Assembly: GCA_024790105.1 (NCBI GenBank)
Contig: GCA_024790105.1_3053.1
Origin: a phage
Strand: one strand, 5' to 3'
DNA: 64,000 bases
Below the pieces are notes generated by a model that ran no database searches, was not told where the DNA came from, and was given only the letters and a program-made list of their open reading frames with translations. Numbering within the stretch: the first letter of the stretch is position 1; every line of letters begins with the position of its first letter. Of the stretch, positions 310-37,022 are shown one piece after another. The position numbers and the translations under genes were made by a program.

Positions 310-702
310 TCACTTAGTTAAATTTTTTACGCATGAATTATAAGAATTCACTACATACTCCATCGGAGCATTTTTACCAGTACGCCATTGGTAATTATTA
401 GCCCAATTAGCCCAAAGTTCTGCACAGTAATTTTCAATTTTTTCTTCGCGTGTAATTACATCCGAATTACGATATGCTTGAGCAGATTCATCTGGACGAA
501 TAGCTTCGTCAAAATTCGCCTGCATTTGTTCTACTGTTTGCTTTGGAGCTTCTTTATAACACTTGACATTAGGATTATAAAATTTGCTTGAACAGTTTAC
601 AATTTTTCCTACATCAGACTGATTTACTACCGGTCCTTGAGCTACACAACCAGTAAGACCTAATGCAATAACCAAAATAGCGATTTTCATTTCATTCTCC
701 AA
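310..702 (-). CDS. Predicted lipoprotein (T4 imm.1 position)
   Basis: 130 aa; N-terminal signal peptide with lipobox LTGC; immediately downstream of a promoter cassette. Confidence 0.5.
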   Translation of the reverse strand: MENEMKIAILVIALGLTGCVAQGPVVNQSDVGKIVNCSSKFYNPNVKCYKEAPKQTVEQMQANFDEAIRPDESAQAYRNSDVITREEKIENYCAELWANWANNYQWRTGKNAPMEYVVNSYNSCVKNLTK

Positions 703-727
703 ATCCGTATCAGTAGTTGATAGTTGT

Positions 728-757
728 ATAGTACCATAGAAGAACAGGGATGTAAAC
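728..757 (-). promoter_or_regulatory. T4 early-type promoter (-35 GTTTAC, 18-nt spacer, -10 TACTAT) within repeated cassette
   Basis: Reverse complement reads GTTTAC ... TGGTACTAT; A/T-rich UP region upstream; same cassette repeated elsewhere in window. Confidence 0.5.
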
Positions 758-843
758 AGTTTTGTGAAAAAAAAATTTTTAGGGAATCAAAAGGGTCCAG
801 AATCATCTCTTTTTCATAAGTATAGATTTATATTACTTGTATG

Positions 844-864
844 AAAAAGGGACCTGGAGGTCCC
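844..864 (-). terminator. Rho-independent terminator downstream of gene 43
   Basis: GGGACC-tgga-GGTCCC hairpin followed by T5 on the minus-strand transcript. Confidence 0.6.
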
Positions 865-877
865 TAGATTTATTCTA

Positions 878-3574
878 TCAGCCAAACAGGAAGTCTAACG
901 AAGCTTTTTCTTCATAGTCCATGCCAGCCGATTCACACATACCCGCAAGCGGTTTAACAAACGATTTTTGGAACAAAGTTGAGTGGTCAATCCAAGATAG
1001 TACGTCAGAACGAATTTCTTTTGGAAGTTCTGTACCCGACGGCCAAGCAATGCACTTGTCACCAAATGGATTTCCTTCACGTAATGGAAGAACCATTACC
1101 TTATTTCCATCCAAAATTGGAGCTACACCTAGACCACTAACAGCTCGACGATAAGTTAGCACCCCACGAATGTGGAACGGGCATTTAAATCCTGGCCAAC
1201 CTTTATCATCATATTTCGCTATATCGTTCGCAGTTTTTACTTCAGCAATAACTTTATAGTCGAGTTGACGATATTCTTTCTCGAAGTTCTTGTAGTATTC
1301 TTGGACAGACTCTTCGCCTTCCTGAAGAATACGACGAATACTTTCTTCGAGAGCTTCTTGTACTGCTTTTGGTGTTGAACTCTGCTGAGTTTCCATACCC
1401 ATGATTTTTAGATGCGGTTCAGCAAATCGCTTATCTTCCATATCATAAACGTTCAGAGCATAACGCTTTTTCGCTTTCCAAAATCCACCAACGCCCTTTG
1501 AACCAAGCGGAGGGCAAGAAATAGCTTCACGGTCCATATGCATCAGATGCTCGCGGTTATTCATATAATCACATAACTCACGATATGCAACATCAATCAT
1601 AGGTTCCATCTTTTTCTTACCGAACTGATTCATGAATTCAACTAAATCGTTCTGCTCTTTGAATCGGTCAAGACCAACTTTTTCAATAACTTTATCTACG
1701 CAAACATATACCGAATCAGTATCACCTGCTGCGATGAAATCTTCATCATTAGTTCCGCATACTTTATTCAGATATTCATTAATTTTACGAGCAATCCACT
1801 GAATACCAACTTGGCCGAAAATTGTGATAGCAGTAGCATTTCGCAAATCATAGTAACGGAAATGAATATTACCAAGAGCACCATAAAGACTGTTAATAAG
1901 AATTTTACGGTTCAGCTGATTTGTATTAGCAAGTGTAGCTGCTTTTTCACATTCTTCAATCAGACTATTAAGAACAGATTCAGTATAATTCGATAGTTCA
2001 TTTAAGAAATCATCATTGAACTTAACATATCGTTCAACTTCTGGTTTAGTTGAACAAGACCCTGCGCCTTTCATAATAATCTTTTTAATAGCTTCGGCAT
2101 TCATTTCTTCAGCGAACATTTTCTTTTTCCAGTCTTTACGCTGGAAAAATACTTTAGCAATTTCCTTTGGAATGATACCTTCTTGATGCTTATCATACAT
2201 CCATCCATTCGGAGAACAAGAATATTCATCACTCGGTTTAGGAGCTGTTCCTGCGATATATTCATGAATTGGATGAACTTTAAACTGACCACGAATAGTC
2301 TCAGGACTAATGTTAACCTGACGAATAATGCTCGGATACAGAGACGTCAAGTCAAAACTCATAATATATCGACGAGCAATTGGTTTAGGTTCAAACACAA
2401 ATGCACCCGGAAAACTTTGTTTAACGTGCGAACCTTGTTGAGGAATAACCTTATGTTCACCTTTCAATGAGTTAAAAATAATAGCATCCCAAGTTTTAAT
2501 AGGACTCATTACACCGGAAAAAGGCATTTTAGCGTAATAAGACATACTTAAAACTAGATCGATAAACCCGCGAATTTTATCAATTGCTTGAACTGATTCT
2601 ACGTCAATGATGTTATAACTAATGTATCGTTGATGATTAGTCTCACGAAGTTTATTAATAGGACCGTCGTATGGTAATTTACCTTTTTTGGTTTCATGCT
2701 GAGCAACTGATTCCAAAGAGAATGACGGCAAATTAGTAAAAGCGAATTTCTTGTACAAATCTAAATAATCAAGAATAGATACGCCATCAATAGAATAAAT
2801 TTCTTTGCTACCGTACACATTTTGAATTAGTTTAGATTTTACTCGACCGATTGGAGAGAAGCGTTTCATACTACGTTCACCGAGAACCATTTTAACACGA
2901 TTCATGATATATGGAACGTCAAATCCCTCAATATTCCAACCGGTAAAAATAGCAGGTCGTTTCTGTTCCCAAAGATTAATATATTCCATGAGCATATCAC
3001 GCTCATTATCAAATGGCATATAAATTACTCGGTCAAGAATTTCTTGAGGAACTTCATCACCACCTTCACAGTCAAGCTTAGCAGCTAACTTTGCATCCCA
3101 TTTTGATACTGAACCGTACATTGAATTCAAAAGGTCGAAAACATAAAAACGATCATCAATTGAATCGTAATGAGTGATAGCATCAATTTCATATTCAGCT
3201 TTCATTGGGTCAGGAAATTTATCACCAGTAACCTCAATGTCGCAGTTAGCTACACGAACAAATTTTCGGTCATAAACAATTTCTGAACCATATGTATCAC
3301 TGATGTAAGCGAGTTTAAAATCGTTCATACCGAGAGCTTCGAGACCGATGTCTTCCATTCGCTTCATCCAGTCTCGAGCATCTTTCATTGATGGAAATTT
3401 TTGAGGAGCGCAGTTTTTACCATAGATGTCTTTGTACTTTGACTCTTCCTTACAATGTCTAAACATAGTCGGAAGATATTCTACTTCGCGAGTACGTTCC
3501 TTTCCGTTTTCATCAATATAACGTTCAACAATGTTATTTCCGACTGTTTCAATAGAGATATAAAATTCTTTCAT
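878..3574 (-). CDS. 43: DNA polymerase gp43 (family B)
   Basis: 898 aa, same length as T4 gp43; DTDS polymerase and exonuclease motifs; synteny. Confidence 0.95.
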   Translation of the reverse strand: MKEFYISIETVGNNIVERYIDENGKERTREVEYLPTMFRHCKEESKYKDIYGKNCAPQKFPSMKDARDWMKRMEDIGLEALGMNDFKLAYISDTYGSEIVYDRKFVRVANCDIEVTGDKFPDPMKAEYEIDAITHYDSIDDRFYVFDLLNSMYGSVSKWDAKLAAKLDCEGGDEVPQEILDRVIYMPFDNERDMLMEYINLWEQKRPAIFTGWNIEGFDVPYIMNRVKMVLGERSMKRFSPIGRVKSKLIQNVYGSKEIYSIDGVSILDYLDLYKKFAFTNLPSFSLESVAQHETKKGKLPYDGPINKLRETNHQRYISYNIIDVESVQAIDKIRGFIDLVLSMSYYAKMPFSGVMSPIKTWDAIIFNSLKGEHKVIPQQGSHVKQSFPGAFVFEPKPIARRYIMSFDLTSLYPSIIRQVNISPETIRGQFKVHPIHEYIAGTAPKPSDEYSCSPNGWMYDKHQEGIIPKEIAKVFFQRKDWKKKMFAEEMNAEAIKKIIMKGAGSCSTKPEVERYVKFNDDFLNELSNYTESVLNSLIEECEKAATLANTNQLNRKILINSLYGALGNIHFRYYDLRNATAITIFGQVGIQWIARKINEYLNKVCGTNDEDFIAAGDTDSVYVCVDKVIEKVGLDRFKEQNDLVEFMNQFGKKKMEPMIDVAYRELCDYMNNREHLMHMDREAISCPPLGSKGVGGFWKAKKRYALNVYDMEDKRFAEPHLKIMGMETQQSSTPKAVQEALEESIRRILQEGEESVQEYYKNFEKEYRQLDYKVIAEVKTANDIAKYDDKGWPGFKCPFHIRGVLTYRRAVSGLGVAPILDGNKVMVLPLREGNPFGDKCIAWPSGTELPKEIRSDVLSWIDHSTLFQKSFVKPLAGMCESAGMDYEEKASLDFLFG

Positions 3575-17391: not shown

Positions 17392-17862
17392 TTAATCATG
17401 TTTCCACACCCCATCGGTATTTGACCAAAGTCGCTGATTATCTGATCCTCGCCACAGCTTTTTAGTCGGAAGATTTTTCTCATACTTCCCATCAATAATA
17501 ACATCAACATATTTAAGCATTTCTAGTTGTTTAATATCCTCAAACTTATATCCTGTCCACAACCAAATGCTTTTATTTGGATAAAGATTTTTTACTGTTT
17601 GAACAATGCAATGAATAACATCTCGGTTATCAGGATAGAGAGGGTCTCCTCCAGTTATAGTCAATCCTTCTATATAATCATTATTCAAACATTCAATTAA
17701 TTGTTCCAGTGTTTCACCAGTGAATGGAACGCCATTTCTAGCATTCCATGTTGATTTATTATAACACCCTTCGCATTTATGCAAACAACCAGTAACGAAA
17801 AGAACTGTCCTGCATCCAGGACCATTAACAAAGCAGCACGGGTATATTCTGTCATAATTCAT
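17392..17862 (-). CDS. nrdG: Anaerobic ribonucleotide reductase activating enzyme NrdG (radical SAM)
   Basis: 156 aa; Cys motif C-x3-C-x2-C near N-terminus; T4 length. Confidence 0.9.
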   Translation of the reverse strand: MNYDRIYPCCFVNGPGCRTVLFVTGCLHKCEGCYNKSTWNARNGVPFTGETLEQLIECLNNDYIEGLTITGGDPLYPDNRDVIHCIVQTVKNLYPNKSIWLWTGYKFEDIKQLEMLKYVDVIIDGKYEKNLPTKKLWRGSDNQRLWSNTDGVWKHD

Positions 17863-18691
17863 TTATATATTTCCAATTATAGCCTTCAACACTTTTACGT
17901 TCGCCATTTAAACATTTTAAAATATTTCCTTTGCTAGAAATATTAAAATATTTTGCTGCGTCTGGTATATAATTAAATGTTTTTAAAAGAACACCATCTT
18001 TATATGCGCCAAATAAATTAAGAGTATATTTTTCTCGAAGACGCTGATGTTTCCTTTTCATAACCTCAGGATTTGCATACGCCAACTTCAATGAATTTCT
18101 GTGTTTTTCTTTTACTTCAGGTTTTTGCATTGCTAACTTAGTTAGCCTGGAAATTTTATTTCTAACTTCGTCAGTTTTCATTGCATTTGACAAATTTAAT
18201 AAAGTTTTATTTCTAACTTCAGGTTTTTGCATTGCTAACTTAGTTAGTTCTCTATGTCTTTTTCTAAAATCGTCATCCTTCCATATATTTTTCGATAATT
18301 TTGACATAGAGCGGTGAAATAATTCCTTTTCACTGGAATACAATTTAAAAATTTCATCCAATTCATCCGCATTAAATCTATCGGTATTCGAGTTTATCAT
18401 TCTATGAAAGGCATAACACATTTTACTATTGCTTGTTTTAGCTAAATAGTAATGAGCTAACGCATGGTCATAATATGACAAATTAACAATATTCCATTTA
18501 TCTGTTTTATATTCAGGAAATATAGATTTGGGAAGCACGTGATGTGCTTCCGTTTTTCCTTTTATTTTAGGATTATTATAATTTTTTGTTATCAAATCAA
18601 CATATGACAATAGTAAATCATTATTTTCTTCAAATATTAAAGATAATTTATCATTCACAAAATCGCAAGGATAAAATCTATCATAATTCAT
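17852..18691 (-). CDS. HNH homing endonuclease (MobD-like)
   Basis: HNH-type His motif AHHVLPKS...YYDHALAH; C-terminal NUMOD-like repeats; located between nrdD and nrdG. Confidence 0.7.
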   Translation of the reverse strand: MNYDRFYPCDFVNDKLSLIFEENNDLLLSYVDLITKNYNNPKIKGKTEAHHVLPKSIFPEYKTDKWNIVNLSYYDHALAHYYLAKTSNSKMCYAFHRMINSNTDRFNADELDEIFKLYSSEKELFHRSMSKLSKNIWKDDDFRKRHRELTKLAMQKPEVRNKTLLNLSNAMKTDEVRNKISRLTKLAMQKPEVKEKHRNSLKLAYANPEVMKRKHQRLREKYTLNLFGAYKDGVLLKTFNYIPDAAKYFNISSKGNILKCLNGERKSVEGYNWKYINEL

Positions 18692-18703
18692 TGGTGTTTA
18701 ACC

Positions 18704-20004
18704 CTATGCATGTTTTACTCGTTTTACCATTTCTTTCATTTTACCTAAATTCCATGGGACAACGCTAGGAGTTCCAAGATATCCGCATGTTCTTCTTATT
18801 GTGTTCATCTTTTTAGGATCAGTTTCTCCACAAATAGAACAAACAAATCCGTTTTCAGTAGGAGTCATTTCATGGGTACTTCCACATGTAAAACATTTAT
18901 CTACTGGCATGTTAACACCAAAATAATCTAAATGTTGTACAGCATAATCCCATACAGCCTCAAGACCTTTTAGGTTATTTTTCATATCAGGAAGTTCAAC
19001 ATAAGAAATGTGACCACCTGTCGCAATGAAATGATATGGCGCTTCACGAGAAATCTTTTCAAACGGAGTAATATTTTCTTCTACTGAAACATGGAAACTG
19101 TTAGTGTACCAGCCTTTATCGGTAACATCCTTTACACTTCCATATTTTTCTGTATCAAGTTTACAGAAGCGATAACAAAGGTTTTCAGCAGGAGTCGAAT
19201 ATAAACTAAAAGCAAATCCAGTTCTTTCAGTCCACTGTTTAAGATGAGCATTCATTTTAGTTAAAATTTCCTGTCCAATATCACGACCGACAAGAATATT
19301 CAATTCATGAATACCAATGTATCCTAGGGACACTGAACTTCTACCATTTTTAAATAACTCAATTATATCGTCATCAGGTTTAAGACGAACCCCGAATGCA
19401 CCTTCTTGGTAAAGAATAGGAGCAACAGTCGCTTTAACTCCTTTTAAGGAACTAATTCTACACATCAAAGCTTCAAAACACAGATCCATTCGTTCATTGA
19501 ATAATTCAGTAAATTTCTGTTCATTGAACTGTGTTCCAATATAAGAATCTAACGCAATACGAGGAAGATTCAGTGTTACAACACCAAGATTATTACGTCC
19601 ATCAAGAATTTCATTACCAGTCGAATCTTTCCATACGCTCAAGAAACTACGGCAACCCATTGGAGAAACAGGAACAGATGAACCAGTGATAGCTTTATTG
19701 TTCTTAGCTGAAATAATATCAGGATACATCCTTTTGCTTGCACACTCTAGAGCAAGCTGTTTAATATCATAGTTCGGATCGTCTTTGTAAAGATTAACGC
19801 CTTCTTCGACGAACATAACAAGCTTAGGGAAAATAGGAGTTATCCCATCACGACCGAGACCTTTAATACGATTTTTCAGAATTGCTTTCTGAATCATTCG
19901 TTCAGTCCAGTCAGTTCCTGTACCAAATGTAATTGTTACAAAAGGTGTTTGTCCGTTTGAACTGAAAAGTGTATTTACTTCATCATTATATTCAGCATGA
20001 GTCG
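18704..20004 (-). CDS. nrdD: Anaerobic ribonucleotide reductase NrdD, exon 2 (approximate 5' boundary)
   Basis: C-terminal Cys-rich zinc site and glycyl radical region; 443-aa frame; exon boundary not determined. Confidence 0.8.
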
Positions 20005-21049
20005 CAAATTCATGCCCGTTTATATGAAACGACAAAATTTGGATAGTCCATAGATATGCAACGTTCTTTTATAGTGCTAGGATGAAAATTTAGCGCTTTA
20101 GCTGCTTCTATATAAGACGTATACTTAATACCGTCAACAACCACATATTCAGGAACTTTATGAATAGTAGTCTTAATACTCAAAACAAGAGGATGAGTTT
20201 CGACTTCACTTTCAGTGCAATTTAAATATTCCGCTGCTTTTTTAAAACTTCTAAAAGTTTTATTTTTAAGCTTTATCGATACTTGTTTTTTACTTTTTCG
20301 ACTATTGATATTATTTTGCACATGTTCCTTAGATCTTCTGTTTTTAGCATAATATTCAGCCACAGAAGATTTTATATTGTTTTTATGAGATTCGGATAAC
20401 ACTTTACCCTTATGAGCATCTCTTAATTTTTGAATATGTTCTTCAGTATCCGGATGCTTATAAAACTTTTTACCGCCTATGGATTTATTTAAACATTTTT
20501 TGCTATAAAAATATTTACGTATGACCTCTTCTTCATGTTTTAATGCATCTTTATAACTATCAAATGTTTTTAAAATTATCCATTTAGTAGGTGTATCAGT
20601 TTTTAAGCGTTCATTTATATACTTAGATGACGTTGTGTAAGTTTTCCAGTTTGTGGGCTTGTTTTTAACTGTTCTAAATTTTTTATAACCGATATAAATG
20701 TCGCCATTAGAAAACTTAACTAAGTATGTAAATGCGTCTTTATCTTTTATTTTAGTACAACGTCTTTTTATCCATTTCATTGTTTCACCTCGTATTCATA
20801 AGATAATCTTATTTATACAAGATGACTGCTGCATGTCGCCATGCAGATTAGACTATATCTTCATCTTTCGATGCCGGCCGTTTCGAATAGCATTAGCTTC
20901 TATTCTACACCGCTACATTCATCACGGTTAGTCGTTAGGCATTTAGTTCAAAAGAACATTTAGCACGGGATTGTCTACTAGAGAGGTTCCCCGTTTAGAC
21001 CGGTTTTACATGAGCCTGAATTAAATTAACTCATACGCCTGGAATGCAT
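20005..21049 (-). mobile_element. Group I self-splicing intron in nrdD (approximate boundaries) carrying a homing endonuclease ORF
   Basis: NrdD reading frame is split into 181-aa and 443-aa pieces separated by about 1 kb containing a GIY-YIG ORF and a GC-rich structured segment at 20780-21020; matches T4 nrdD intron arrangement. Confidence 0.75.
20010..20780 (-). CDS. Intron-encoded GIY-YIG homing endonuclease (I-TevII-like)
   Basis: 256 aa; N-terminal GDIYIGY motif; inside nrdD intron; TATAAATA late promoter on minus strand at 20810-20817. Confidence 0.8.
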   Translation of the reverse strand: MKWIKRRCTKIKDKDAFTYLVKFSNGDIYIGYKKFRTVKNKPTNWKTYTTSSKYINERLKTDTPTKWIILKTFDSYKDALKHEEEVIRKYFYSKKCLNKSIGGKKFYKHPDTEEHIQKLRDAHKGKVLSESHKNNIKSSVAEYYAKNRRSKEHVQNNINSRKSKKQVSIKLKNKTFRSFKKAAEYLNCTESEVETHPLVLSIKTTIHKVPEYVVVDGIKYTSYIEAAKALNFHPSTIKERCISMDYPNFVVSYKRA

Positions 21050-32482: not shown

Positions 32483-33020
32483 TTACTATTTCCAAAAGTT
32501 TATTATTTTTAAGGTAATTAGCCTTTTCTAGGACTTCAAAAGCATATTTAGAACCAGCTTTAACATTCCATCCCGAATTATAAGAGGATATTGCTTTTCT
32601 TATATCGCCCTTATGTATATTTAACCAATAAGAAAGTTCAATGTACGCCCAGGAAGCTGAATTGGATCGTTTATTCAACATTCTTTTTATTTCAGCATCG
32701 GTCATATTATAACCAAGTTCCTTAACTCTTGCTCGCATAGTAGGCAAATAATTTTGGAACATTCCGTAGGCGTGATGCTTTGGTTTAGATTTTAAATTAA
32801 CTCCGCCAGAGCTTTCTTGCCATAAAATAGCAGCCATTATATGACCTAATCCGCTCTTGTGGATATTTTTGTGTGTTTTATATTTTCCATCCTTAGAAAA
32901 CTGTTCCCCGAATTGATACGCGTAACGCATGTTATCGAGTTGGACATTACTGAAAGTATGCTCGGAGCTATGTGCCATCATAGAAATAGCCAATAGACCA
33001 GCGAGTAGTGCTTTTCTCAT
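32475..33020 (-). CDS. Lytic transglycosylase-like secreted protein
   Basis: Signal peptide; SLT-like E-S...GMFQ catalytic motif (WQESSGG ... YGMFQ). Confidence 0.6.
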   Translation of the reverse strand: MRKALLAGLLAISMMAHSSEHTFSNVQLDNMRYAYQFGEQFSKDGKYKTHKNIHKSGLGHIMAAILWQESSGGVNLKSKPKHHAYGMFQNYLPTMRARVKELGYNMTDAEIKRMLNKRSNSASWAYIELSYWLNIHKGDIRKAISSYNSGWNVKAGSKYAFEVLEKANYLKNNKLLEIVND

Positions 33021-33027
33021 GCTTACC

Positions 33028-33489
33028 TCATTGAGTTTTAATTACTGCTTTAGAAGCCTTTCCTGGTAAACGACGACTGTTAATAATTGCCATCCTGCAT
33101 TGAAGTAACGGGTTTTTGAACTTCTCATTAGGCTTACAAACCGTAAATCCAAGCCAAAGATTTCCATCTGTGATTTCTAAACGTCCAGGACGATATTCAA
33201 CCCCATCAATAAAATCCTCGTCAATGTCAGGACGCGGAGGCATACTCAGGAATTCATTAACTTCTAAAACATGGTCTTTTATTTTATGGAATAATTCAAA
33301 AACATATGTCTCATCAATCTCCCGTTGAATTGCACGATCAAGAAGATGTTGAGAATATTTTAGATGAAACGATGAGACCCCTGCTGCTTTTGATGCCTCA
33401 CGAATCTCATTGTTAATTTGACGAAACTCCGACTCAAAATGACGACGAAGCTTATTTCGACGGATAAAAACTTCTGTATTGATAGTCAT
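33028..33489 (-). CDS. regB: Endoribonuclease RegB
   Basis: 153 aa, T4 RegB length and sequence as recalled. Confidence 0.85.
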   Translation of the reverse strand: MTINTEVFIRRNKLRRHFESEFRQINNEIREASKAAGVSSFHLKYSQHLLDRAIQREIDETYVFELFHKIKDHVLEVNEFLSMPPRPDIDEDFIDGVEYRPGRLEITDGNLWLGFTVCKPNEKFKNPLLQCRMAIINSRRLPGKASKAVIKTQ

Positions 33490-33516
33490 GTTATTCTCCT
33501 CTTAACTGATAGAAAA

Positions 33517-33546
33517 ATTATACCACAGTCAAGAGGAAAAGTAAAC
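33517..33546 (-). promoter_or_regulatory. T4 early-type promoter
   Basis: GTTTAC - 18 nt - TGGTATAAT (extended -10) upstream of regB. Confidence 0.55.
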
Positions 33547-33548
33547 AG

Positions 33549-33869
33549 TTATTCTTTAAATCTGATCAATTTATTCATAGACTTTGAGACTTCTGCACGA
33601 ACCTCATGTAGATTTTTGAGCTGTTCAAGACGCTGCGCATAGTAAGCAATTTCATCTTCTTCTAGACAGTCCTGTGAATCTTCTTTAAGATAACGCGCAT
33701 AGTCCTGGAAAGCATTACGAATTACTTCTTGGAAGTCATCAAGACTTTGAATTTTCTTAGGAGCAACAGATACACGACGAGGGGCAGTATAATACTCATA
33801 ACCAAACCCTGCGCTTAATTGAGCCATTAGTATTTTTCCTCTGGTTGGAACACAGCACGGCAAGCCCAC
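33549..33869 (-). CDS. Hypothetical protein
   Basis: 106-aa ORF, start uncertain. Confidence 0.4.
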
Positions 33870-34129
33870 ATACTGGCTTCTTTGAGTTTCGTTTTAGCAA
33901 TAGTTAACTGATCTAGGCTTTCAGCATAATTCTTTGCGAATTCGTAGTCTTCACAATTATCTAGTGCTTCCCAGAATTCATCATATAAAGCGTCAAAGAT
34001 AAGTCCTAAACGAACTTCAGCGTCTTTGATAGCATTCACTTTACCGATTTTCTCTTCAGTATGTGGTTTATAACCCTTAATATCTTCAATCATATTTGAC
34101 TTCCTCGCCCGTTCCCAAATCATATTCAA
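33827..34129 (-). CDS. Hypothetical small protein (T4 vs.4 position)
   Basis: About 88-100 aa depending on start; positional candidate only. Confidence 0.4.
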
Positions 34130-34307
34130 CTAAACGAATAGGTTCATGAATGCCATATCCCTGAACAGAAATTTCTGTCGTAGGATAAATTCCATTAATA
34201 TCACCCATGTTCCATGCTTCGTTAAATTGATGTTCGCCTGAATTACTAAACCATTTGGCGAAAGCATTTAGCACATCTTCAGAACCTTCAATAATTATCT
34301 TTGCCAT
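34086..34307 (-). CDS. Hypothetical protein
   Basis: 73-aa ORF. Confidence 0.4.
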   Translation of the reverse strand: MAKIIIEGSEDVLNAFAKWFSNSGEHQFNEAWNMGDINGIYPTTEISVQGYGIHEPIRLVEYDLGTGEEVKYD

Positions 34308-34669
34308 TACAAACTCTCGGTAAAGGTACGAGCGATAACGTCGCGCTGCTGTTCCGGAGTCAGAGAGTTAAAGCGAACTGCATAACCGGATACACGGATA
34401 GTCAGCTGCGGATATTTTTCCGGATGCTTAACTGCATCTTCCAGAGTTTCACGACGCAGAACGTTAACGTTCAGGTGTTGACCACCTTCAATTTTAACTG
34501 TAGGCTGTTGCTCAATTTCAATTTCACGGGCATGCAAACCGTAGAAAATTTCTGGGTCTACAAAAGAGTCCTCTTTAAAGGTTTTAGAGACAATAATTCG
34601 TGCTTGAATACCATCTTCAAAATAAATAGTACCTTTATGTGTGCCTTCAAGAATTTGATATGCTTTCAT
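34307..34669 (-). CDS. Autonomous glycyl radical cofactor GrcA/YfiD-like protein
   Basis: C-terminal half contains glycyl radical motif RVSGYAVRF and matches E. coli GrcA C-terminus as recalled. Confidence 0.8.
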
Positions 34670-34676
34670 ATAAACC

Positions 34677-35606
34677 TCAATTAGAAAATAAATTTATCCA
34701 AGATTGTTCTTTAATTAAAAATGGCTCAGAATCATATGCCATTAAACTCTGTGTGATTAGTCCTTTAAAAGGCCCATCAATAAATTCCATGGTAAAATAT
34801 GGAATTTTATTCATTAGCCGTGCATTAGGAGCAGTACACAAAACTCTGCATCCTTTGAATACGCCTTTTTGTAATTTGTATTGCTTGGGATAAAATTCGC
34901 TTAAAATGTTGTTATTTGCCAAAATTTCAAAATGATTCACCAATTTATTTTTAATAGTTTTTGGCGAAAAATAAAGATATTCGAAAAGCTGAGTGTCTGT
35001 CATCATTGCATTCCGATTACGAAAAAACTGTGGACGAGTAATACCACCAATACAACATTTAATATTACAGCAGCAGTGTACAGTGTCAATATGGACACTA
35101 TAAATCTTATCCATATCAGGAGATTTGACAGGCTCATCAATTATATACAAAATTCGCGAAAGCGATAAACCTCTGAACTTGCTTCCTTTATTACCAATAA
35201 AACTGCGCACAGAATCAGTAAATAAACGAAAACGTATATCATCATTAGAATAACGCGAAAATTCCTTTTTAATGTTATTTGCAGAAATTTTAGCGTAAGC
35301 TGAAGTATTAGAAAGAACAATAACTGTTCCACCGTCATACAACCAATTAGCGGCAAAATTAGTTACTGCAATTGATTTACCGGATTGACGTCCACCATCT
35401 ATACGAAGTGTGCAGTACTGTTTAAGTAATTCTTCAAATGGTGGGATATAATCGTTTTTACAAATTTCTTCTACTCTAGCGTCAGAATGGTGTGTAAAAG
35501 CATTCATCAGGGATAGATAAGGACCAGTTAAAAATGTTCTCATTTTATTCTCTCTAAATTTGGGCCATTCCATGGCGCATGAATTGTCCATTTCTGTATT
35601 TACCAC
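34677..35606 (-). CDS. P-loop NTPase of unknown function
   Basis: Walker A GGRQSGKS and Walker B-like LYIIDE; Cys cluster HCCCNIKCC; occupies region where T4 has vs.7/denV. Confidence 0.5.
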
Positions 35607-35623
35607 TCCAAGTAATTATGAAT

Positions 35624-35653
35624 ATACTATCACAATTCTAGGAGAAAGTAAAC
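35624..35653 (-). promoter_or_regulatory. T4 early-type promoter cassette (downstream flank of ipII)
   Basis: GTTTAC with A/T -10 region; near-identical to copy at 36020-36049. Confidence 0.45.
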
Positions 35654-35655
35654 TG

Positions 35656-35958
35656 TTATTTATCTTTAATTACTTTAGCTGCTTCGATAGCCGCTTGCTG
35701 AAGGTCATCCATAGACATACCGAATTTAGAAGCAAAGTTATCAATTTTCTTTTCGACAGCATTCAAAGGCTTGGCCTGTTTACCTTCATTAGCGCCAGGA
35801 AGAGCGAGAATACGCTCTTTGTCAATATAAAGGCTTACAAGTTTCTTACGGTCTTTATCGGACAAATCATGAAATGAATGGGCCTTTTTATTTATAGCGG
35901 CTTCTAATTTACCTGCACTCACTCGCGCTTCAGTAATAAATTCTTGATATGTTTTCAT
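35656..35958 (-). CDS. ipII: Internal protein II-like (capsid-targeted)
   Basis: 100 aa; N-terminal MKTYQEFITEA capsid targeting sequence typical of T4 internal proteins. Confidence 0.7.
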   Translation of the reverse strand: MKTYQEFITEARVSAGKLEAAINKKAHSFHDLSDKDRKKLVSLYIDKERILALPGANEGKQAKPLNAVEKKIDNFASKFGMSMDDLQQAAIEAAKVIKDK

Positions 35959-36019
35959 ATGTTTCCTTTAAATGTAAATATTTTAATTGGTAATTGACTG
36001 TTCAAATAACTGTGAATAT

Positions 36020-36049
36020 ATATTATCACAATTCTAGGAGAAAGTAAAC
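36020..36049 (-). promoter_or_regulatory. T4 early-type promoter cassette (upstream flank of ipII)
   Basis: GTTTAC - 18 nt - TAATAT. Confidence 0.45.
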
Positions 36050-36053
36050 AACT

Positions 36054-37022
<969 letters not shown>

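Follow-up and report, generated by a model that had tools for sequence, protein, structure and literature searches.

A vs.6 gene of a T4-like phage encoding a GrcA-type cofactor with an apparently host-converted glycyl-radical domain

An open reading frame (ORF) of 120 codons in a T4-like phage raises two questions: how a protein whose C-terminal half is that of the E. coli autonomous glycyl radical cofactor GrcA came to carry a divergent N-terminal half, and whether its radical-bearing domain would serve an enzyme of the host or one of the phage. The ORF lies in the window (the whole stretch of phage DNA analysed here, 64,000 nucleotides), begins with ATG, ends with TAA, and is preceded at a distance of 5 nt by GAGG, a putative Shine-Dalgarno sequence assigned by position that overlaps the stop codon of the vs.7-like ORF upstream; its own stop codon shares bases with the ATG of the gene that follows (TAATG). 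A preliminary description of this DNA held that the C-terminal ~60 residues match E. coli GrcA, and a comparison with GrcA and with the C-terminus of pyruvate formate-lyase (PflB) bears this out, in that residues 61-120 (EGGQHLN...TFTESL) are identical to GrcA at 60/60 positions and the DNA of this part is 97-99% identical. The glycine of the RVSGY motif, on which that description depended, is intact; this residue, Gly95, lies in the sequence RVSGYAVRF of a PFL-type C-terminus and corresponds to GrcA Gly102 and PflB Gly734 in alignments to 6OWR and 1H16. The coordinates of these features are collected in Table 1.

Table 1. Features of the vs.6 locus, with positions in the window and the basis of each assignment.
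Feature	Position	Strand	Basis
vs.6 / grcA-like CDS, 120 aa, orthologue of T4 Vs.6 (Y06I)	34307..34669	-	ORF; Pfam, NCBIfam, PDB and PHROG matches
5' segment, gene nt 1-178, residues 1-59/60, AT-rich phage-lineage N-terminal region	34492..34669	-	Divergence from bacterial GrcA; phage synteny
Host-derived tract, gene nt 179-350, residues ~60-117, glycyl-radical domain	34320..34491	-	Near-identity to E. coli grcA DNA
Gly95 codon GGT (RVSGY), predicted radical-bearing glycine	34385..34387	-	Sequence reading; 6OWR and 1H16 alignments
Putative Shine-Dalgarno sequence GAGG	34675..34678	-	Position, 5 nt before the vs.6 ATG

Profile and structure searches place the protein in the GrcA/YfiD family. Its sole Pfam domain is Gly_radical (PF01228, E=2.5e-18, residues 60-101), and among NCBIfam models the GrcA equivalog TIGR04365 (IPR011140) scores best, with residues 20-120 aligned to positions 25-126 of a 126-position profile. 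The score of 154.9 bits is below the curated cutoff of 170 because the N-terminus is divergent and 7 residues shorter than that of E. coli GrcA. Among solved structures, the top match is E. coli GrcA (6OWR, E=9e-42, residues 22-120 against 28-127), followed by the C-terminus of PflB (1H16 and others, E=5e-26), where residues 58-120 are ~80% identical to PflB 697-759, including RVSGYAV around Gly734. Only these last ~63 residues of PflB are matched. The protein has neither the 10-stranded barrel of PflB nor its catalytic Cys418/Cys419, and the ~750-residue barrel and catalytic cysteines of full-length glycyl radical enzymes (PFL/TdcE) have no place in an ORF of 120 aa; it is a cofactor module, not an enzyme. 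What it shares with GrcA/YfiD (6OWR, TIGR04365) is the same layout, in which an N-terminal region leads into a PFL-like glycyl-radical domain, in a small stand-alone protein of the ~14 kDa class. Over its full length, the protein also matches the phage family phrog_1209 (E=5.7e-63, residues 1-120, profile of 121 positions), and this match, together with a conserved gene position, places it in the T4 vs.6 group.

The source phage is T4-like and belongs to Tequatrovirus. Searched against phages, the 3.6 kb around the gene has matches in 869 records and is 96-97% identical in DNA to Tequatrovirus genomes, T4 included, and the gene order in the window (regB, vs.3, vs.4, vs.5, the vs.6 ORF, vs.7/vs.8, ipII, e) agrees at vs.6 with that of T4 and JEP6, where the gene likewise lies between the vs.5 and vs.7 homologues. 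The orthologous position in T4 is gene vs.6 (AF158101.6, 63557-63919), and tblastn searches of phages indicate a single copy of a vs.6-type locus per T4 genome. T4 Vs.6 (Y06I) resembles the window gene in length (120 aa), neighbours, orientation and mosaic breakpoint, and 118/120 residues (98%) are identical; the window protein has Q54 where T4 has P, and R73, as in E. coli GrcA, where T4 has H. By contrast with enterobacterial grcA, which adjoins ung, vs.6 sits in an AT-rich cluster of early phage genes. Taken together, the ORF is almost certainly the Tequatrovirus orthologue of T4 vs.6, that is, a phage autonomous glycyl-radical cofactor of the GrcA/YfiD type that is mosaic and carries a host-converted radical half. 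Its occurrence has been recorded before as a Gly_radical ORF of T4-like phages in a 2006 comparative paper (PMC1524935), and many GenBank and RefSeq records already label the phage gene "autonomous glycyl radical cofactor GrcA". Other labels on orthologues vary ("pyruvate formate-lyase", "2-ketobutyrate formate-lyase", "formate acetyltransferase", "hypothetical protein"), and those that name a pyruvate formate-lyase are misnomers. PHROG 1209 is annotated as of unknown function despite containing a T4 member characterised in 2001.

The two halves of the gene have different relationships to the bacterial gene. At the DNA level, the maximum chi-square for a breakpoint is 126, reached by 0/2000 permutations, and falls at gene nt 178|179 (34492|34491). 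To its left, identity to E. coli grcA is 77/178 (43%), in the N-terminal half that the preliminary description had called divergent, and to its right it is 177/182 (97%); GC content rises from 0.34 to 0.49 at this point. In a codon-aware alignment, the tract of nt 179-350 is identical to E. coli grcA at 171/172 positions, with one mismatch, and its 3' boundary lies at approximately gene nt 350. When 5426 complete E. coli genomes were searched with blastn, only gene nt 179-363 matched, at 96.8-97.3% and in every genome, and the 5' half had no match in any of them. Counted over codons 61-117, the window gene differs from E. coli grcA at 2/171 nt and the T4 gene at 1/171, corresponding to dS values of 0.048 and 0.000, respectively. 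For reference, dS is 0.048 between E. coli and another Escherichia species, 0.38 between E. coli and Citrobacter, and 0.60 between E. coli and K. pneumoniae. In a neighbour-joining (NJ) tree of the 3' half, Tequatrovirus and Mosigvirus fall inside Escherichia with 95% bootstrap support, and among the phage homologues compared these two genera alone carry the E. coli tract. Most of the phage-specific changes within the tract turn a third-position G/C into A/T, which fits amelioration in an AT-rich genome. On these sequence comparisons, the 3' half was overwritten very recently by E. coli grcA through homologous recombination, and the nucleotide comparison thus bears out a recent host origin for that half. 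A transfer from host to phage is the direction indicated, since the divergence of E. coli grcA from its counterparts in Citrobacter, Klebsiella and Salmonella is of a similar degree in either half and since the composition of the tract is host-like; the presence of grcA in all 5426 E. coli genomes was counted for the same direction. The breakpoint lies at the 5' edge of the domain because the conserved domain alone is similar enough between phage and host to recombine.

Near-identity of a short and conserved domain could in principle arise from extreme constraint on the protein, or from convergence, and the C-terminal domain is indeed highly conserved in all phage and bacterial homologues. Homologues with nearly the same peptide are nonetheless far apart in DNA, the identity to E. 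coli being 63% in the jumbo phage Yen9-04 and 71% in T5-like phages. At the codon level, 55/60 same-amino-acid codons of the window gene are identical to those of E. coli, as compared to 44/60 for Citrobacter and 17/49 for the jumbo-phage homologue, with 17-24 of ~49 across the Yen9-04 and T5-like homologues, and the tract dS to E. coli (0.048 for the window, 0 for T4) is low in the same way. Constraint or convergence without DNA transfer was rejected on this codon-level comparison with other phage homologues and is regarded as scarcely tenable. A second concern is technical: host DNA is carried along in phage lysates and the tract scarcely differs from E. coli, so that during assembly reads of the host might have been built into the phage contig where the two have homologous genes. 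Against this, the same mosaic and the same breakpoint recur in independent genomes of Tequatrovirus and Mosigvirus by the hundreds, Sanger-era T4 records such as X04567 among them, and phage-specific substitutions are found inside the tract of those genomes. The probability left to an assembly artefact is vanishingly small.

The preliminary description further proposed that the gene as such was recently captured from an enterobacterial host. This holds for the 3' tract (171/172 nt, chi-square 126) and fails for the 5' half, which belongs to an old phage lineage. The 5' 178 nt show only 39-51% nucleotide identity to 82 bacterial grcA genes, a divergence at saturation, and the 60 N-terminal residues are divergent yet alignable to GrcA (for example against ARCIVAKAGFAED). 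Among phages, nucleotide identity of the 5' half is 89% to Mosigvirus, 73-74% to Jiaodavirus and Karamvirus, and 58-62% to Slopekvirus and Pseudotevenvirus. Its dN/dS among phages is 0.12-0.29, and it therefore encodes something functional. The vs.6 homologue also occupies the same neighbourhood (vs.4/vs.5, regB) across T4-like genera. A 5' half that is old, syntenic and shared among phages indicates that the gene is a long-standing phage resident, of which only the radical domain is recently host-derived. It might be argued instead that the whole gene is a recent capture in which the 5' half then diverged fast as a disordered and unconstrained region; E. coli YfiD does have a disordered N-terminus (PMC8683613), and the 3' half is clearly host-like. 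Such a history would require 39-51% identity to every bacterial grcA tested immediately beside a tract with a dS of about 0-0.05, a step across one codon boundary that is beyond any rate difference, and it would leave a 5' half under purifying values of dN/dS (0.12-0.29) that is shared at 73-89% nucleotide identity, in synteny, with Mosigvirus, Jiaodavirus and Karamvirus. Whole-gene capture was rejected on the breakpoint analysis and on the similar sequence and conserved position of the 5' half from one phage genus to another, and it is given hardly any credence.

Homologues were detected by tblastn in 1592 phage records, including those of T5-like, Aeromonas and jumbo phages, and the homologues of Jiaodavirus, Slopekvirus, Karamvirus, Krischvirus, Pseudotevenvirus, Tequintavirus/Epseptimavirus, Aeromonas phages and Eneladusvirus are the same two-part protein. 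Their 3' halves differ from that of the window gene and range from Klebsiella-like (Jiaodavirus, 95-97% identical to K. pneumoniae) to fully phage-like (63-80% identical to any bacterium tested). In the Yersinia jumbo phage fHe-Yen9-04 (Eneladusvirus), the grcA homologue (595..957 of the extracted segment) lies two genes downstream of nrdD and is fully AT-adapted, with a GC content of 0.33 in the radical domain and 63% nucleotide identity to E. coli.

The Klebsiella-like tracts indicate that the overwriting of the radical domain is not confined to phages of E. coli. When K. pneumoniae grcA (taken from CP125156.1, a 5.37-Mb record of the PLSDB plasmid collection) was compared with phages, 77 records matched at 95-99% identity over grcA nt 199/202-374. 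It should be noted that CP125156.1 is a complete K. pneumoniae chromosome that is filed in PLSDB as "plasmid unnamed2". The Klebsiella-like tract shares its position and its 5' edge with the E. coli-type tract, and nearly all of the K. pneumoniae-grcA-like phages among the matches listed are Klebsiella phages of the genus Jiaodavirus. The 3' half of the Nispero gene matches K. pneumoniae grcA at 170/180 positions, as compared to 153/180 for E. coli, and contains a perfect run of >100 nt with the K. pneumoniae gene; the count for its 5' half is 71/180, and GC content is 0.36 in the 5' half versus 0.58 in the 3' half. Phage tracts matched to Salmonella or Enterobacter were also sought, and none exceeded 90% over the tract. 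In Klebsiella phage KPV15, a frameshift after ~42 codons breaks the grcA homologue (1325..1686 of the extracted segment) into two annotated CDSs, and the 3' part retains the K. pneumoniae-like tract.

Differences between closely related phages bear on how often such replacement has taken place. Nispero and KP179, both Jiaodavirus, are identical at 178/180 positions in the 5' half and at 168/180 in the 3' half, and their tracts differ from K. pneumoniae grcA at 5/171 and 15/171 nt, respectively. The dS values that separate the window gene from that of a Mosigvirus are 0.42 (5' half) and 0.15 (3' half); for T4 and the same Mosigvirus, the codon counts are 12/54 (5') and 4/59 (3'), with a Fisher p of 0.03, and the synonymous-rate contrast of this pair is marginal (p=0.03-0.06). 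The clade of Jiaodavirus and K. pneumoniae in the NJ tree of the 3' half has a bootstrap value of only 54%. Drawn as they are from tracts of 171-180 nt, these comparisons argue well for two independent host-specific conversion events, one involving E. coli and one Klebsiella, and more weakly for multiple conversion events inside one genus. The broader reading, namely that the grcA allele of the current host overwrites the radical half of phage grcA time after time, that tract ages differ even within a genus, and that vs.6 is therefore a datable conversion reporter and maybe an instance of adaptive matching, is considered fairly probable. Conversion to the host allele may keep the spare part exactly matched to host PFL and its activating enzyme (PFL-AE) while the phage N-terminus is retained. 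No prior report of recurrent host-specific conversion was found in the searchable literature, and one could already stand in the 2001 BBRC paper or the 2003 review of the T4 genome.

The function of the T4 protein has been addressed biochemically. According to passages in PMC8683613 that summarize the work of the Knappe group (Wagner et al., 2001, BBRC 285:456), T4 Y06I (~14 kDa) and E. coli YfiD both receive a glycyl radical from the PFL-activating enzyme, and both bind O2-cleaved PFL and restore its activity in vitro. These two are the only validated spare-part proteins; the C-terminal part of YfiD duplicates the PFL C-terminus, and YfiD residues 1-60 are disordered, and PFL-AE needs them to install the radical (PMC8683613). 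Both the gene and what its product does biochemically are thus already known from T4 Y06I (2001), and no new kind of system is at hand. By analogy, given the 98% identity to Y06I, the window protein would be activated by PFL-AE and would restore PFL that has been cleaved by O2. An in vivo phenotype of a vs.6 mutant was sought in the searchable literature and none was found.

Which enzyme is served is a further point on which the preliminary description was only partly right. It proposed that a phage-borne GrcA rescues oxygen-cleaved glycyl radical enzymes of host or phage; the host half of this proposal agrees with the Y06I literature and the 98% identity, by analogy, and the phage half does not agree with the comparison with phage NrdD. 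As it had described, NrdD and NrdG are encoded by the same phage, and both were located in the same window as vs.6: nrdG at 17392..17862 (-), with domains Fer4_12/Radical_SAM, and the 3' exon of nrdD at 18704..20035 (-), with domains NRDD and Gly_radical. The nrdG gene and the 3' part of nrdD are separated and flanked by homing-endonuclease-like ORFs (17392..20780, -), one with an I-HmuI/NUMOD-like domain (17852..18691) and one of the GIY-YIG SegE-like type with NUMOD1 (20010..20780). The co-occurrence of nrdD and nrdG with vs.6, the position of the fHe-Yen9-04 homologue two genes downstream of nrdD, and a speculated role in nucleotide metabolism in the 2006 comparative paper (PMC1524935) would be compatible with a protein that partners or repairs phage NrdD, activated by NrdG, in place of host PFL. 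Several observations make this very unlikely. First, the vs.6 protein has no significant BLASTP similarity to the NrdD exon of the window (E=3.9) and does not belong with NrdD-type domains, and a role as spare part for phage NrdD was dropped on this comparison. Second, its radical domain is identical to that of GrcA and ~80% identical to PflB 697-759. Third, the tract has repeatedly been exchanged for the grcA of the host, a gene whose product mimics host PFL. Fourth, vs.6 lies ~14 kb from nrdD/nrdG in T4-like phages, and the biochemistry reported in passages of PMC8683613 uses PFL and PFL-AE. Host PFL is therefore, on the domain sequence, the likely client of the vs.6 protein, and TdcE is plausibly a further one, with the host activase PflA.

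The following model would accommodate these observations. Host PflA, the radical SAM PFL-activating enzyme, would install a radical on Gly95 of the vs.6 protein, the C-terminal domain of which copies the C-terminus of host PFL and would dock on PFL that has been cleaved by oxygen at Gly734; the docked protein would then restore the conversion of pyruvate to acetyl-CoA and formate. T4 shuts off host gene expression, and in this model the phage would therefore supply its own spare part, which may keep fermentative energy and the supply of acetyl-CoA going in a gut host under fluctuating oxygen. The conserved radical domain recombined with E. coli grcA while the old phage N-terminal half was retained, and the same replacement took place independently in Klebsiella phages with Klebsiella grcA, tracking the host. 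A different use of the same chemistry can be envisaged, in which the protein manipulates host PFL, PFL-AE or formate metabolism, for example by titrating PflA or by activating full-length, inactive PflB. The phage N-terminal region is distinct and conserved among phages, and the corresponding region of YfiD controls activation (PMC8683613), which would suit such a role; passages of the same source, however, report that Y06I acts like YfiD in vitro, and manipulation of the host enzymes is accordingly held to be unlikely as compared with the spare-part function set out above.

The aspect of vs.6 for which no description was found in the searchable literature is the recurrent host-specific conversion of its radical domain. 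The locus is an unusually clean case of recent and apparently recurrent host-to-phage conversion that is limited to one domain and takes place in strictly lytic phages, and the E. coli and Klebsiella cases could serve to measure how frequently lytic phages recombine with host DNA. If the reading of repeated overwriting is true, vs.6 would offer a natural record, open to dating, of conversion from host to phage in virulent phages that break down the DNA of their host. The mosaic also raises the question of whether selection favours a radical domain that matches the host enzyme exactly, or whether the match is a by-product of recombination. Annotation of the family in databases is poor despite a characterised member.

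Several features of the neighbourhood merit mention. A scan for promoters and terminators over 33000..36700 was uninformative on expression (14 versus 13.9 expected and 3 versus 2.2, respectively, against shuffled sequence). Two genes downstream of vs.6, the vs.4 homologue (33827..34129, -) matches the Pfam family Acb2_Tad1_hairpin (E=1.3e-19), which is taken here to be a family of cyclic-nucleotide sponges countering CBASS and Thoeris defence. Upstream, a single ORF of 309 aa (34677..35606, -) comprises vs.8 (phrog_1488, residues 24-195) and vs.7 (phrog_2049, residues 201-309); the two are fused by an extra T in the T-run at 35022..35027 (6 versus 5 in T4 and JEP6), just before the vs.8 stop, and the fusion could be real or a homopolymer sequencing error. 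Finally, T4 ipIII and denV are absent from ~35606..36054; as in JEP6, ipII (35656..35958) is the one gene lying between the vs.8 homologue and e (36054..36548).
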